In this document: positions 1 to 64,000 of the stretch, in pieces
Layout of the letters: every line of letters begins with the position of its first letter
Position numbering within the stretch: the first letter of the stretch is position 1
Source of the DNA: a virus
Reading direction: 5' to 3' (one strand)
Virus record (IMG/VR): IMGVR_UViG_3300045988_166471
Location: 2,366 to 66,365 of that record
DNA: 64,000 bases
Notes under the pieces: model-generated
Database searches by the model: none
Seen by the model: the letters and a program-made list of their open reading frames with translations, nothing else
Told to the model about the DNA's origin: nothing
Made by a program: the position numbers and the translations under genes

Positions 1-7
1 TTCATCT

Positions 8-736
8 TCATTGAACGAAGTATTCATAGGCTATTGTTGCATATTGTTGTCTAACATAATTTGATTGTGGTAATCCTCTTTCATAGCATTTCATAAAAGC
101 TAAAGCAGCTTCTTGCTCATTTTCCAATTCTAAAAATTTTTCAAAATTAAAATTATTTGAATAACAAAAACCAAACATATCAATTTGATATTTAATATCA
201 TCACGAAGAAAATCCATTTGACCCTTTAGGTCTGCACCCCATACTTCATCAGTAAATACCTGATTCCATTGACATAATCCATAAAATCCATTACCATAAA
301 TAGTAGTTTGCAAATCTAAAGTCCCGCCACCAACCTCAGCCATCATATTACCTAAAATTCCAGCACATACATAATTATTCCAGCCAAGATTTTTCATATA
401 TTCCCAAATAAGAGTAGCGTCCTTGTATTCAAGGTCATCTAATTCTTTATTAATTTTATCTAATTGATTTTGATAAAATTTAATAATTTCATTATAAAAA
501 TACCACTGACTTTTAGCACTTATAATTGGTTGACTATTTTCTGTATAACCAATCATTCGAGCTTTATCAGCCACTAAATGCACTTCTTCTTTTTTCAATG
601 TATATTCTTCAATTAAATTGATAAGTTCCCAATAATTATTGGTTTCTTTTAAAGGAGTATATTCAACAGCTATTGCACTTACATTAATAGTTAAAATTAA
701 AAGAATACTAATAATTATAATAATTTTTGTTTTCAT
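8..736 (-). CDS. Secreted peptidoglycan-hydrolase-like protein (phage tail lysozyme-like domain), with N-terminal signal peptide
   Basis: Uninterrupted 242-aa ORF. N-terminus MKTKIIIIISILLILTINVSA looks like a signal peptide. Motif AGILGNMMAEVGGG...GLCQWN resembles the phage tail lysozyme / glucosaminidase family. No in-frame TAG. Confidence 0.45.
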   Translation of the reverse strand: MKTKIIIIISILLILTINVSAIAVEYTPLKETNNYWELINLIEEYTLKKEEVHLVADKARMIGYTENSQPIISAKSQWYFYNEIIKFYQNQLDKINKELDDLEYKDATLIWEYMKNLGWNNYVCAGILGNMMAEVGGGTLDLQTTIYGNGFYGLCQWNQVFTDEVWGADLKGQMDFLRDDIKYQIDMFGFCYSNNFNFEKFLELENEQEAALAFMKCYERGLPQSNYVRQQYATIAYEYFVQ

Positions 737-753
737 ATTTTTCTCTCTATCTA

Positions 754-2296
754 TTAAAAATAATATTTTACATTTTTAGTAATATGATAATCAGTAATAA
801 AAATTTCTGGATTAGTTTTTCCTAAAAATTCATTTATTTTACAAGTACCTATAATATCAATAATAATACATCCTGTATCACTATGTAAATTATTATATTC
901 TTCTTGATTGACATTAAATTTAATTAAATCTAAATCATTTGGTAATTTAATCTTTAATGTTCCAGTAGTCTCTTTAGGATAATAAATTACATTATTATTT
1001 GTAAGTTTTAAATTTTTAATAACTATATATGGCTCTTTAAAATTCTATCCCCATAAAGGTTCAAATTCTGGTATTTCTAATATAGTATTTATATCAATAT
1101 TATTACTATCAAAAATATAATCGGCTAAATAAACTGGCTAACCATCATAACCATACAATTTACTATTTGTATCTGTTATAAATTTTCTTATATTGCTATC
1201 TGCGATTTTCGCACCAAAAGCTCCCTAATGACCTTCTGCAAATTCAAAATATCCAGTAGAGTTAAGATAAGCCTTAAAATCTTTTATAGGCTCAAAAAAC
1301 TCATAGCCACGACCTGATCCTTCCCAGTATTTTATTCCATTTTCAATTACTTCATTAAGTATAAGAGTTGGCTTCTAAAATCTATTTGCAAATTCATTTG
1401 CAATTAATCCAGTTAAATTTTTATTTACCTCATACTTTTTCTCCAACTAAACAACTAAAATCTAATCATTTAATAAACCTTGTTCTTCGATTAATTTCTC
1501 AATTATTTCAACATTAGTATCACGGATCTTAGTCTATCGCGTTTTTACATTACCACTTACTCGGCATGCTTGTTCTACAATAGTTTCTGCCTATCCTTTA
1601 CATCCTCTTTTGGTTGATGGAACTAAATCATAAGCAAGAAAATCTAACATACTCTAAAATACAACTTGTCGTTCATCAATTTCTCCAACACGTGTGACTG
1701 CATTAATAAGTGGAGCAATATAAAAAGCAACACCCATAGGAGTTAAAGTTTCTTTTAATTTGAATTTATTTTTTTCCATCATACCTTTAATATAGGGATT
1801 TTGAGGATTTTTTAAACCTTGATTGATAAAATAACGAGTTTCATAAGGTCTACTATCTACCATATCTCCGATTAACCCAAGAGCCACTAAATCTAAATAC
1901 TTGTTTGAATAATTAGTATTAATAATTTCATCAATAGCATTACAAAATTTATATACTATTGCAACACCTGATAGTGCTTTATTAGGGTAATTGTCTAATT
2001 GATTATTAATCGTACAAGCATAAGGAGATATTTTATCTACTTCGTGATGGTCTAAAATTAATATATCAATACCTTTATCATAAAGCACTTTATGTTCATT
2101 ATACTAATTACTTCCAGCATCTGGGATTATTACTAACTTAGTATCTTCTGGAATAGTATCTAAAATAATACCATGAGTTTTCTGCGTATGGACTCTATAA
2201 TAAACATTATTAGATACATAATAAGGAAATAAATTATATAAATAATTAATTAATAACGCTGATGATGTATAACCATCACAATCAGCATCTACCTAA
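754..2296 (-). CDS. DHH/DHHA1 phosphoesterase (RecJ-like exonuclease), read through several in-frame TAG codons
   Basis: Motifs VDADCDGYTSSA, IIPDAGSN and ILILDHH match the DHH family. Reading frame is continuous across TAGs, e.g. plus 1045-1047 and 1138-1140 (cta on plus), giving LWG-TAG-NFKEPYIV. Ends at TAA near 754. Start is uncertain. Confidence 0.5.
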
Positions 2297-2507
2297 ATAA
2301 AAATTTTATTATTCTATTTAATATGTTTTAATAATAGTTTAATTCCCTATTCCATGTTATTTAATAATTTATTAGGATATATATCGGATTGCGTGGGATT
2401 AAGAAAATGCTAAATATCTTCAGTCTTAATCCCACGGTTATTCATTATTGTTTCTAATGGAGTTTTTTGTGTATCATTAATTAATTTATAATTCATATAC
2501 TTACTCC

Positions 2508-62540: not shown

Positions 62541-63074
62541 TTAATTATTAAATTTAGGAATTGCTATATAATAATAAGTATAACCCTTATTATTGAATAT
62601 ACTAGTATAATAACTACTAGCAGCAGTAATAATAACTGATTTTGAATTCCAAGTAAAACTAACATAAGTGCCATTATTATTAGGAAATGGGTATTTCATT
62701 CCTTGTATGCCACACATATAATTTTGAGCAGTACCAGCATTAGTTTGCACCATAAACAGCATCAAATAAGCAGGTTCAAAATTAAAATTAAGAGTTTTTG
62801 TTAAAGCATTATTTCCTATATAACTTCCAACATAAGCTCCTTTGATACTTATATCGCCAGTCATTCCATTTACTGATCTAACTAAATGAGACGTAAGATA
62901 TCCAGCATCATTAGTTAATTGACTTACTTTAGAAATTTTGTTATTCTATATCTGCTAATCAACATATTTTTTATCGGTTAAGTCTCCAGTATTAGATGGT
63001 GTATAAGTACTATTCATAGTTATTTTGCCTGTTGTCATAATATTATTTTTTGAGGTTAATAGCATTTCATTCAT
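62541..63074 (-). CDS. Tail-fibre-family protein (KYVD module), TAG-containing
   Basis: ...DLTDKKYVD-TAG-QI-TAG-NNKISKVSQLTNDAGYLTSHLVRSVNGMTGDISIKGAYVGS... Confidence 0.4.
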
Positions 63075-63134
63075 ATCTTTTGGTAATTCACTTATTTTAT
63101 TATCAATAGCCTAAATAGTATCATTTTTTATAAT

Positions 63135-63527
63135 CTATAAGTCATTTATCACATCTAATAAATAGTCTTCTGGTTCTATTCCTCGAATATTAAGAACGAT
63201 AATACTATCATTAGCTGATGCCGCAAAATCTAATAACTTAATTTTATTATCTTGAATTATATAGTTTATATTTTTAGTCATTAATATACCATTAAAAAAT
63301 ATATTTAAATCTTCAGGATTTTCAACAATAAAAGGAAAAGTAAATGTTGTATCTCCTTCTTGGGCAATGAAAGAATATTTATAAGGAAGGTCATCTTCTT
63401 TATTTATAATGTATATTTCATCATTGTTTACTTTTCCTTGTTTCACCATTTGATTATAAATTTTCCTAGATGGAACTTTATTTATAACTAAAGAATCTAA
63501 TAATTTTTCATTGTTTTTTATTTCCAT
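63135..63527 (-). CDS. Hypothetical structural protein (130 aa)
   Basis: ORF only, TAG-free. Confidence 0.3.
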   Translation of the reverse strand: MEIKNNEKLLDSLVINKVPSRKIYNQMVKQGKVNNDEIYIINKEDDLPYKYSFIAQEGDTTFTFPFIVENPEDLNIFFNGILMTKNINYIIQDNKIKLLDFAASANDSIIVLNIRGIEPEDYLLDVINDL

Positions 63528-63542
63528 CTATTATTCTCCTTA

Positions 63543-64000
63543 TTAACTCCAAGCAACAGGTACGATAGTCCAAGTTCCAGTTTTAGATGTACGATATTTA
63601 AAAGTACCAGATGAAGATGTGTCAATCCATAATAAAGGTGCTGTGCCTGACGCGGGAGTAGATGAGCCAATATAGATTGGAAAAGTAGTAGATGTGCCAA
63701 CTATTGAAGGTTTACTATCATCAACGTATTTTTTTGTAGCAACATCTTCGTTTGCTGAAGGAGTATAAGTACTATACATAGTAATCTTACTATCAGTAGC
63801 CATTGTGTTTGTTTTATTTAAAAACATAATATTAGAAGTATTTGATGGTAATGTGGCAACTAAATCATTAATTTCTTTAAGAGTCTTTTCTTTCACAGTA
63901 TTTATTTCATTAATTGATGAAGTTTTTATAGCTTGTATTTGTTTAATTGCATCTTCGGCCTCTTTGCCAAAATCAATTGCTGCAGCTCCTTCTATACCCA
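63543..64000 (-). CDS. Tail-fibre-family protein with shared C-terminal module (5-prime end may lie beyond the window)
   Basis: ...ATKKYVDDSKPSIVGTSTTFPIYIGSSTPASGTAPLLWIDTSSSGTFKYRTSKTGTWTIVPVAWS. Confidence 0.45.
   Translation of the reverse strand, partial: GIEGAAAIDFGKEAEDAIKQIQAIKTSSINEINTVKEKTLKEINDLVATLPSNTSNIMFLNKTNTMATDSKITMYSTYTPSANEDVATKKYVDDSKPSIVGTSTTFPIYIGSSTPASGTAPLLWIDTSSSGTFKYRTSKTGTWTIVPVAWS

Follow-up and report, generated by a model that had tools for sequence, protein, structure and literature searches.

The stretch of viral DNA described here, positions 2,366 to 66,365 of IMG/VR virus record IMGVR_UViG_3300045988_166471 (64,000 nucleotides; the window), belongs to a phage genome of roughly 190 kb. 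Genetic code 15, in which the stop codon TAG specifies glutamine (Gln), is in use in this genome, which also encodes its own tRNA with the anticodon CUA, tRNA(CUA). Our subject is the uneven use of in-frame TAG by its genes. The window is AT-rich (~29% GC) with a negative GC skew throughout, and nearly all of its genes lie on the minus strand. Among IMG/VR contigs it has close relatives as long as 188 kb, to one of which the window is a circular permutation; a megablast search with positions 11001-36000 against the phage collection returned no match. With TAG as sense, the summed length of open reading frames (ORFs) of at least 100 codons rose from 50.7 kb under the standard code to 74.7 kb. 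Genes were modelled as stop-to-stop ORFs with TAA and TGA as stops, picked by codon-usage score and then curated. Starts were corrected for three of them (flotillin, TTG at 27630; a 940-aa glycine-rich protein, TTG at 62073; a radical SAM/GT2 gene, GTG at 58225), and an ORF at 44655-44780 was dropped because it falls within a ROOL RNA. The final set comprised 68 genes and 18,984 codons with 155 in-frame TAGs (2.72 per kb), and TAG made up 24.7% of their Gln-type codons. The models end in TAA 56 times and in TGA 12 times, an outcome fixed by the ORF-calling rule.

Functions were assigned by searching the window proteins against Pfam and PHROGs. For replication and recombination, we recovered a primase, DnaB, an AAA_24 protein, a ligase, topoisomerase (topo) II subunits A and B, RNase H and RecJ; for lysis and related functions, a CHAP+Amidase_2 endolysin, a Phage_lysozyme2 protein and a PIN+PhoH protein. 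Accessory genes included two metallophosphatases, an AAA_33 kinase, NADAR, a major vault protein (MVP) homolog, a DUF2828/DUF7788 protein of vWA type, flotillin and an SLH-domain protein. Four radical SAM genes, four GIY-YIG and three HNH endonucleases were also found. The ORFs of the fibre-like group and of the radical SAM cluster mostly gave no match to Pfam or PHROGs, and the label "tail-fibre-like" is based on composition, repeated termini and one weak PHROG match. No integrase or repressor and no release factor or aminoacyl-tRNA synthetase gene was found in the window. The SLH domain together with the CHAP/Amidase_2 endolysin suggests a host with a Gram-positive-type envelope. The genes that matter most for what follows are these:

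8-736, minus strand: Phage_lysozyme2 gene; 0 TAG.
754-2496, minus strand: RecJ-like DHH exonuclease, 580 aa (Pfam DHH, RecJ_OB); 14 TAG, 8.0 per kb.
2508-3611, minus strand: DNA primase, 367 aa (PHROG 47, 7.7e-26); 0 TAG.
3830-5362, minus strand: DnaB-type replicative helicase, 510 aa (Pfam DnaB_C); 2 TAG, 1.3 per kb.
11110-12318, minus strand: ATP-dependent DNA ligase, 402 aa (Pfam DNA_ligase_A_M); 0 TAG.
12692-15073, minus strand: topo II A, 793 aa (Pfam DNA_topoisoIV, 1.5e-132); 0 TAG among 21 Gln codons.
15015-15197, minus strand: C-terminal 60 aa of GyrB as a separate ORF (Pfam GyrB_C).
16233-17942, minus strand: topo II B (GyrB-like), 569 aa (Pfam DNA_gyraseB, Toprim, HATPase_c); 0 TAG.
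17935-18411, minus strand: RNase H, 158 aa; 0 TAG.
19718-20176, minus strand: holin-like membrane protein, 152 aa; 5 TAG, 11 per kb.
20197-21489, minus strand: CHAP+Amidase_2 endolysin, 430 codons (Pfam); 2 TAG, 1.6 per kb.
26251-27630, minus strand: flotillin/SPFH protein, 459 aa, with a TTG start and a ribosome-binding site (Pfam Band_7, Flot); 0 TAG, CAG-preferring.
30752-33241, minus strand: MVP homolog, 829 aa (Pfam MVP_shoulder, Vault_3); 0 TAG.
33820-35358, minus strand: DUF2828/DUF7788 (vWA-type) protein, 512 aa (Pfam); 0 TAG, 13 CAG, 0 CAA.
35782-36918, minus strand: SLH-domain protein, 378 aa (Pfam SLH); 0 TAG; -0.97 on the first principal component (PC1) of codon usage.
37915-41463, minus strand: tail-fibre-like protein, 1182 aa; 18 TAG, no in-frame TAA or TGA, no Pfam or PHROG match.
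54275-55762, minus strand: radical SAM enzyme, 495 aa (Pfam Radical_SAM); 12 TAG, 8.1 per kb.
63543-63998, minus strand: tail-fibre-like gene cut by the right window edge; 0 TAG in the window part, 3 in the full ortholog of L017.

TAG is not randomly distributed among these genes, as a reading of the DNA without database searches (the sequence-only reading) had claimed. Over the 68 genes, dispersion was significant both by length (chi2 177.1, df 67, p 6.9e-12) and by Gln codons (chi2 129.4, p 2.5e-6; Monte Carlo 2e-4), and 8 of the 18 genes of at least 350 aa had no TAG where 0.35 were expected. That reading had named uniform density in correctly delimited genes as the observation that would speak against it; counted per gene on the curated models, TAG was still overdispersed. 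The out-of-frame density of TAG was 7.4 and 6.2 per kb for TAG-free genes, compared with 8.8 and 5.6 per kb for TAG-bearing ones. Because TAG is equally common out of frame in both classes, composition does not account for the contrast, and the depletion is specific to the reading frame.

The genes listed as TAG-free by the sequence-only reading were all TAG-free at the lengths it gave: topo II A and B, ligase, primase, RNase H, MVP, the vWA protein, flotillin, the SLH protein, both metallophosphatases and the lysozyme. Its list of TAG-rich genes stood for RecJ, the long gene with the highest TAG density in the window, for the tail-fibre-like genes (41 TAG in 3,096 codons) and for the radical SAM genes, which lie in a TAG-dense radical SAM/glycosyltransferase cluster at 48.6-58.2 kb. 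It did not stand for the helicase and the endolysin, which at 1.3 and 1.6 per kb are below the mean, or for PhoH, which is average (4 TAG in 418 codons). Nor are all homing endonucleases TAG-rich: the GIY-YIG genes carry 8, 3, 4 and 2 TAGs, and among the HNH genes those at 42106-42552 and 46386-46955 have none and that at 45496-45912 has one. The statement that long replication genes are TAG-free was right for primase, ligase, topo II and RNase H, and wrong for RecJ, the densest, and for DnaB with its 2 TAGs. By class (Pfam-defined, counted on the gene models before start correction) the totals were:

Replication genes without RecJ: 3 TAG in 3,186 codons, 0.31 per kb.
Tail-fibre-like genes: 41 TAG in 3,096 codons, 4.4 per kb (start of 59251-62073 not yet extended).
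Radical SAM genes: 31 TAG in 1,976 codons, 5.2 per kb.
Homing endonucleases: 18 TAG in 1,503 codons, 4.0 per kb.

The first two classes differ strongly (Fisher p 2e-11), and the genes densest in TAG encode nucleases, the holin-like protein, radical SAM enzymes and tail-fibre-like proteins. The holin-like ORF has two hydrophobic segments, lies directly downstream of the endolysin gene, has no database match and carries 4-5 TAGs in all close relatives; the hydrophobic segments and the position beside the endolysin make it a candidate holin.

Along the window, the two kinds of gene are not sorted into blocks. Gene order gave 25 runs against 27.1 expected (p 0.33), and the best single split, at 37.9 kb, separated regions with 1.73 and 4.34 TAGs per kb (permutation p 0.04). 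TAG-dense RecJ is flanked by the TAG-free primase and lysozyme genes at gaps of 11 and 17 nt, and one radical SAM gene with 5 TAGs is flanked by two TAG-free genes at 2- and 4-nt gaps. The pattern is a mosaic within tightly packed gene strings, with a weak regional gradient; contiguous one-code blocks, as in block-wise dual coding of the Mgcod type, were not found in the window.

Several comparisons bear on how TAG is read. Against ten close relatives, the partner of a variable TAG codon was CAA in 35 and CAG in 13 of 64 variable pairs (48/64 together), and in distant relatives Q was the commonest residue opposite a window TAG (12/41 vs a background of ~3%). Both DnaB TAGs lie opposite Q in L006; the "YIGQS" motif of GIY-YIG proteins is spelled YIG-TAG-S in the window, with Q opposite in distant relatives; and in a three-way RecJ alignment (100%, 77% and 52% identity) TAG and CAA/CAG occupy the same columns. 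TAGs showed no excess near C-termini by gene-length deciles, and a near-terminal TAG in the AAA_33 kinase gene lies opposite K in two relatives whose frame continues. From these alignments, we conclude that TAG is glutamine in the window phage. That the TAG-rich "genes" are pseudogenes or mis-joined ORFs of a standard-code genome has next to no chance of being right. Stop-to-stop ORFs do run that general risk, and a few N-terminal TAGs may precede the true start, but the long TAG-bearing ORFs are free of in-frame TAA and TGA, Pfam domains extend across TAGs in the RecJ, DnaB, PhoH, Amidase_2, radical SAM and GIY-YIG genes, TAG falls opposite Gln in orthologs, a tRNA(CUA) is present, and public gene calls of the relatives are in code 15, which together refute the artefact.

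The amber-suppressor tRNA was easily missed. ARAGORN reported five tRNAs and no suppressor in the window, and a whole-window Rfam scan did not detect tRNA(CUA) either; a regional Rfam scan returned a sixth tRNA, with anticodon CUA, at 42872-42943 on the minus strand (38.9 bits vs a gathering score of 29).

42869-42943, minus strand: amber-suppressor tRNA(CUA) including an encoded CCA (regional Rfam match and minimum-energy fold).

The minimum-energy fold is a cloverleaf with the anticodon loop CUCUAAA. The tRNA has its oddities: its T-loop (GGCAGCA) and its D-loop are both non-canonical, and it has a U1xC72 mismatch as well as G73. We infer charging with Gln solely from G73 and the unpaired 1:72 position. 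L011 (1135-1209) and L009 (451-525) have different, unrelated CUA tRNAs at the syntenic site, so that the locus holds three unrelated sequences among genomes more than 90% identical, and all three versions have 1:72 unpaired, G73 and an encoded CCA. Endonuclease-driven exchange is a suggested route by which the suppressor cassette is replaced. A GIY-YIG endonuclease (42949-43707) shares the suppressor tRNA locus in the window and in L010.

We then compared TAG counts gene by gene with those in relatives. L013 and L015 had been fetched via their RecJ homologs (52% identity in L013, 77% in L015), and gave the following numbers of TAG:

Primase: window 0, L015 0, L013 0.
Ligase: window 0, L015 not covered, L013 0 (partial, 356 codons).
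Phage_lysozyme2: window 0, L015 0, L013 0.
DNA polymerase III (PolIII) alpha: outside the window; L015 1 (431-codon part), L013 0 in 1316 codons.
RecJ: window 14, L015 11, L013 5.
GIY-YIG fusion gene: window 8, L015 10, L013 7.
DnaB: window 2, L015 3 (403-codon part), L013 1.

The share of Gln codons written as TAG was correlated between window genes and their L013 orthologs (rho 0.56, p 0.04, n=14). Topo II A has no TAG in five close relatives and in L006, topo II B none in all relatives compared, and ligase none in the close relatives, L006 and L013; the partial primase copies of close relatives have 0-2. Relatives whose DnaB gene carries TAG have 1-3. In L006, whose topo II A is 42% identical, no TAG occurs in the orthologs of topo II, ligase and DnaB, and the GIY-YIG, PhoH and endolysin-like genes contain one each. 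TAG-free status is thus kept in relatives as distant as 42-56% identity. Of the 175 CAA/CAG sites in TAG-free genes, 2 were TAG in any close relative (80-100% nucleotide identity), compared with 10 of 140 such sites in TAG-bearing genes (Fisher p 0.007). Judged by these comparisons, the TAG status is a conserved trait of each gene, apparently maintained by selection.

Two further lines of comparison were set aside. The protein collection includes code-15 gene calls (a full-length RecJ at 99% identity is present in it, and for two fetched RecJ relatives a table 11 translation of the DNA does not give the database protein), and full-length MVP matches were therefore rejected as proof that MVP genes are TAG-free. 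Relative L012 had higher ORF coverage with TGA as sense and was considered as TGA-recoded; at the level of genes its recoding is of the ordinary TAG kind, and the surplus ORFs arise as artefacts, out of frame, in genes richer in GC. The MVP search itself returned 6,412 matches at E <= 1e-10; the best 120 of the 6,412 were at 64-98% identity, many of them on 170-200 kb contigs.

Could TAG avoidance be a by-product of codon choice? In a principal component analysis of synonymous codon use with Gln excluded, the main axis took up 34% of the variance, with MVP, the vWA protein and flotillin at one end; the SLH, AAA_24 and YorF-like genes are at the same end of PC1. The biased genes favour CGT, GGT, CTT, GTT, TCT, TTC and AAG. 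In MVP, vWA and flotillin the bias takes the form of CAG instead of CAA (60 vs 4 jointly; 25 vs 3 in MVP) and of four-fold codons ending in T or C, and the GC content at third codon positions (GC3) is 0.28-0.34 (0.28 in MVP) compared with ~0.14 elsewhere. The main rival to an interpretation of TAG as a regulatory device is selection for efficiency or robustness with no element of timing, in which suppression always competes with release factor 1 and every TAG lowers the yield and gives some truncated product; TAG is purged where this is costly and drifts in elsewhere by neutral exchange with CAA/CAG. TAG density follows the main codon-usage axis (rho 0.47, p 8e-4), TAG is absent from the genes with the strongest codon bias (flotillin, MVP, vWA, SLH), and TAG positions turn over, all as such selection would have it. 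Other results do not fit. The TAG-free primase, ligase, topo II and PolIII alpha genes have unbiased codon use, the strongly biased AAA_24 and YorF-like genes retain a TAG, and dropping the six genes with the strongest bias leaves the distribution overdispersed (by length, p 3e-7; by Gln codons, 0.0017). Moreover, 18 TAGs in a gene of 1182 codons call for very efficient suppression, and the cost per TAG would then be small. Selection on codon bias and efficiency accounts for part of the TAG pattern only; as the whole explanation, we regard it as possible rather than probable.

The same genes bear on a second alternative, also raised by the sequence-only reading, that TAG-free genes have a different origin, having been newly acquired from standard-code organisms with no time to accumulate TAG. 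The composition of MVP, vWA and flotillin is indeed sharply distinct in CAG use, GC3 and position on PC1. However, MVP and vWA are just as free of TAG in L012, where the orthologous proteins are 66-67% identical, and they show the same bias there (in MVP, 27 CAG, 0 CAA and a GC3 of 0.39), and the four-fold sites of MVP are close to saturation between the two genomes (0.56 identical vs 0.47 expected). A bias that is the same at near-saturated sites is a maintained one, not the trace of a recent transfer. The TAG-free replication enzymes have ordinary phage codon use and prefer CAA. In GC3, which that reading had proposed to compare, the TAG-free replication genes are ordinary too (0.12-0.14). 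With TAG-freeness conserved at 42-56% identity as well, a difference in origin is largely refuted for the replication genes and quite improbable as the general cause.

Upstream of TAG-poor genes, we observed a conserved motif, AAATATTATATAATATATATA, with 12 minus-strand matches (at most 3 mismatches) against 0.34 expected by chance. Written as AAAAATATTATATAATATATATAGAAA, the motif exceeds 21 nt, has a central TATAAT and no obvious -35 element, and occurs at 12 sites across 8463-49505 on the minus strand:

28995, 30687 (-30707), 33435 (-33455), 35421 (-35441) and 36988 (-37008), minus strand: five strong copies within 28995-37008.
8463, 19301, 45278 (-45298), 46019, 47597, 48578 and 49485, minus strand: further copies.
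Near 35700-35744, minus strand: a weaker copy.

In a weight-matrix scan, copies lay 8-171 nt upstream of genes, of tRNA-Thr and of the ROOL RNA. The motif precedes a TrmB-like gene, the string leading to RNase H and GyrB, the kinase/phosphatase/flotillin string, NADAR, MVP, vWA, SLH and two small genes, as well as the tRNA-Thr and ROOL RNA genes, and a weak copy lies upstream of the endonuclease-plus-suppressor locus; relative L012 (64% identity) has it before the same genes. MVP and vWA each have their own copy and their own terminator. Genes directly behind the motif have 1.02 TAGs per kb compared with 2.95 elsewhere (p 0.001), and 0.63 compared with 3.52 when tightly linked downstream genes are added (p 2e-11), an association whose test is partly post hoc since the motif was found while upstream regions were being read. 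The TAG-dense genes directly follow hairpin terminators instead, and candidate late-promoter motifs in front of them are short and AT-rich. The conserved motif is promoter-like and marks a distinct transcription class.

This class brings up a third alternative, in which accessory genes are expressed like morons in a lysogenic or carrier state with the code switch off and must be readable in the standard code. Phosphatases, NADAR, MVP, vWA, SLH and flotillin each have their own motif copy and hairpin terminator, and recoding has been proposed as a lysogeny switch (10.1101/2021.08.26.457843). Neither an integrase nor a repressor is present in the window, however, the motif also stands before tRNAs and the ROOL RNA and, in weak form, before the suppressor region, and the TAG-free replication enzymes are left unaccounted for; we consider this alternative unlikely.

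TAG recoding, a suppressor gene and a distribution of TAG that is non-random, specific to the frame, conserved and associated with the promoter-like motif are all demonstrated. The best-supported reading of the pattern is a graded amber gating, to which we give about an even chance; timing or dosage would be its purpose. One set of genes would be kept readable in the standard code: primase, ligase, topo II A and B, RNase H, PolIII alpha (in relatives) and a secreted lysozyme, together with the accessory genes that have their own promoter, namely the phosphatases, NADAR, MVP, vWA, flotillin and SLH. In the remaining genes, Gln codons would drift among CAA, CAG and TAG. TAG-free genes could then be translated in full once their mRNA is present, genes with 1-2 TAGs would require some suppressor, and genes with 5-18 TAGs (the RecJ nuclease, GIY-YIG endonucleases, holin-like protein, radical SAM enzymes and tail-fibre-like proteins) would give a full-length product only when the phage tRNA(CUA) is plentiful. 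Such a gating layer would act after transcription, given that TAG-free and TAG-dense genes lie 2-18 nt apart in the same strings. The TAG-dense class is rich in products that would be harmful if made early, among them the RecJ nuclease, the GIY-YIG endonucleases and the holin-like protein, which fits gating. So does the early place of the first TAG within genes (at 0.173 of their length vs 0.291 by chance, p 0.0016), a skew that may be inflated by starts placed too far upstream. More specifically, and tentatively, amber codons may act as a per-gene graded dial (0, 1-2 or 5-18 TAGs), conserved per orthogroup in the ~190-kb MVP-encoding phages even within operons and switched by a fast-evolving, homing-endonuclease-linked suppressor-tRNA cassette with at least three unrelated alleles.

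The sequence-only reading had proposed temporal control, with recoded genes fully translated only once the suppressor tRNA has accumulated. The tRNA(CUA), the per-gene conservation, the motif and the kinds of product encoded by the densest genes are compatible with this and lend it some support; a strict split into early replication and late structural genes fails. Several observations weigh against gating. DnaB, AAA_24 and the YorF-like gene, and PIF1 and NrdD in relatives, have conserved TAGs, so that suppression would already be working at replication, which is at odds with a simple early/late switch. In the endolysin gene there are just 2 TAGs, and the capsid, portal and terminase genes are outside the window; a walk along relatives beyond its right edge met only more fibre-like, radical SAM, Cys-rich and homing-endonuclease genes and did not reach capsid or terminase. 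TAG positions are fluid and turn over with CAA/CAG, as if single TAGs were nearly neutral (14 of 67 window TAG sites are CAA/CAG in close relatives). The correlation with PC1 could be yielded by efficiency selection without timing, and the promoter association carries the post hoc element described above.

Further features of the window concern inserts and structured RNAs. Its GyrB gene is interrupted near "RMKG|...MDVDE", which leaves the separate 60-aa GyrB_C ORF, and one tRNA gene is split as well:

15204-16236, minus strand: 1033-nt insert splitting the GyrB gene, with a GIY-YIG homing endonuclease at 15347-16036 (Pfam GIY-YIG; 3 TAG).
41820-41932, minus strand: RAGATH-33 RNA (135 bits).
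41946-42769, minus strand: tRNA-Leu(UAA) split between U34 and A35 by a 738-nt insert (41998-42735) with the TAG-free HNH ORF 42106-42552.
44655-45248, minus strand: full-length ROOL RNA (323 bits), with its own motif copy at 45278-45298.

The GyrB insert is missing in L001-L003, in which GyrB is continuous, and L004 and L005 have another endonuclease (64% identity) at the same site. DnaB (L015) and PolIII alpha (L014, L015) are also split by endonuclease genes. The tRNA-Leu halves are 100% identical to the uninterrupted tRNA-Leu of L011, and the insert lies at the site of the classical cyanobacterial/plastid tRNA-Leu(UAA) group I intron; an Rfam search for group I introns (E-value mode) in the GyrB and tRNA-Leu inserts gave no match. 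The ROOL and RAGATH-33 RNAs sit in a tRNA/endonuclease island that extends from a fibre-like gene to the radical SAM cluster.

Four fibre-like ORFs on the minus strand (37027-37899, 37915-41463, 58648-59082 and 63543-63998) have a common C-terminal motif, approximately LLWID.SS..G.(L/F)KY(R/W)....W..(I/V)(P/S)(V/A).W, and those of relatives beyond the window share the N-terminal MA.II.(L/F)(R/K)RG...W...N..L..GE.G.E.DT...K.GDG. The fibre-like ORFs may, as these repeated termini suggest, be a family of modular receptor-binding proteins. Radical SAM/SPASM-type enzymes adjoin Cys/Ser/Gly-rich proteins at 23685-25846 and 52905-58225 (minus strand), with a further pair in L021:2-1904; examples of the latter proteins are 23685-24545 ('CSSCSGSDCVAGCGECS...') and 55729-56244. 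One of the radical SAM genes also encodes a fused GT2 glycosyltransferase domain. The pairs resemble modules that modify ribosomally made peptides.

Both the phenomenon and its interpretation have been published, and the window adds one more case, from a lineage of MVP-encoding phages with genomes of roughly 190 kb. In eight clades (Lak, crAss-like, Garnet, Amethyst, Jade, Sapphire and Agate, as well as Topaz), Borges et al. (10.1101/2021.08.26.457843) found structural and lysis genes recoded and proposed a timing model; recoding of replication genes was variable, and an intron endonuclease in an early gene was preferentially recoded. The window shares with those phages its low GC, in-frame recoded stops, own suppressor tRNA and variable recoding of replication genes. 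Structural-type and lysis-associated genes are recoded here too (tail-fibre-like genes 4.4 per kb, holin-like gene 11 per kb, endolysin 2 TAG), a gene set compatible with the standard code is conserved in relatives down to ~50% identity, and the TAG-bearing endonuclease inside the TAG-free GyrB mirrors their recoded intron endonuclease. The differences are that those phages have alternatively coded modules whereas the window is a gene-by-gene mosaic (runs test p 0.33), that its endolysin is lightly recoded, and that its densest gene, RecJ, lies inside the replication module.

Two other reports describe TAG or TGA reassigned in the late-gene region of crAss-like phages together with suppressor tRNAs (PMC7886860, Yutin et al. 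2021) and block-wise dual coding (Mgcod, 10.1101/2022.06.29.495998). The window is alike in combining standard-compatible and recoded parts in one genome and in having a suppressor tRNA, and differs in that TAG-free and TAG-dense genes alternate with a weak gradient, in place of distinct code blocks, and in that the hosts of crAss-like phages are Bacteroidetes whereas its own predicted host has a Gram-positive-type envelope. Peptide evidence for code 15 in crAss-like phages is given in PMC9523058. The code-15 phages phAss-1/"Phassvirus" with probable Clostridia hosts (PMC10607447) likewise read TAG as Gln with a tRNA-Sup(CTA) and no dedicated synthetase. Further shared points are that recoding there falls mostly on virion genes, along with several DNA-processing enzymes, and that orthologs of close relatives differ in recoding. 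Their genome is smaller (136 kb vs ~190 kb in the window lineage), and gene-level conservation of TAG avoidance was not analysed there.

The window leaves the existing model unchanged and adds resolution to it: avoidance that is frame-specific, conservation per gene across saturated divergence, a mosaic within operons and an association with a promoter class. The rule that replication genes are standard-code is too coarse, since helicase and RecJ need suppression, and annotation of this lineage by standard-code gene callers and by ARAGORN goes wrong. That a reassigned stop is used unevenly is the main argument for code change as a form of phage gene regulation, as opposed to a neutral by-product of low GC. 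If the graded dial were true, the order in which nucleases, lysis proteins and virion proteins are made, and their dose, would depend on the supply of suppressor and be independent of transcription, and the TAG-free, codon-biased MVP, vWA and flotillin would be built for the unmodified translation machinery of the host.

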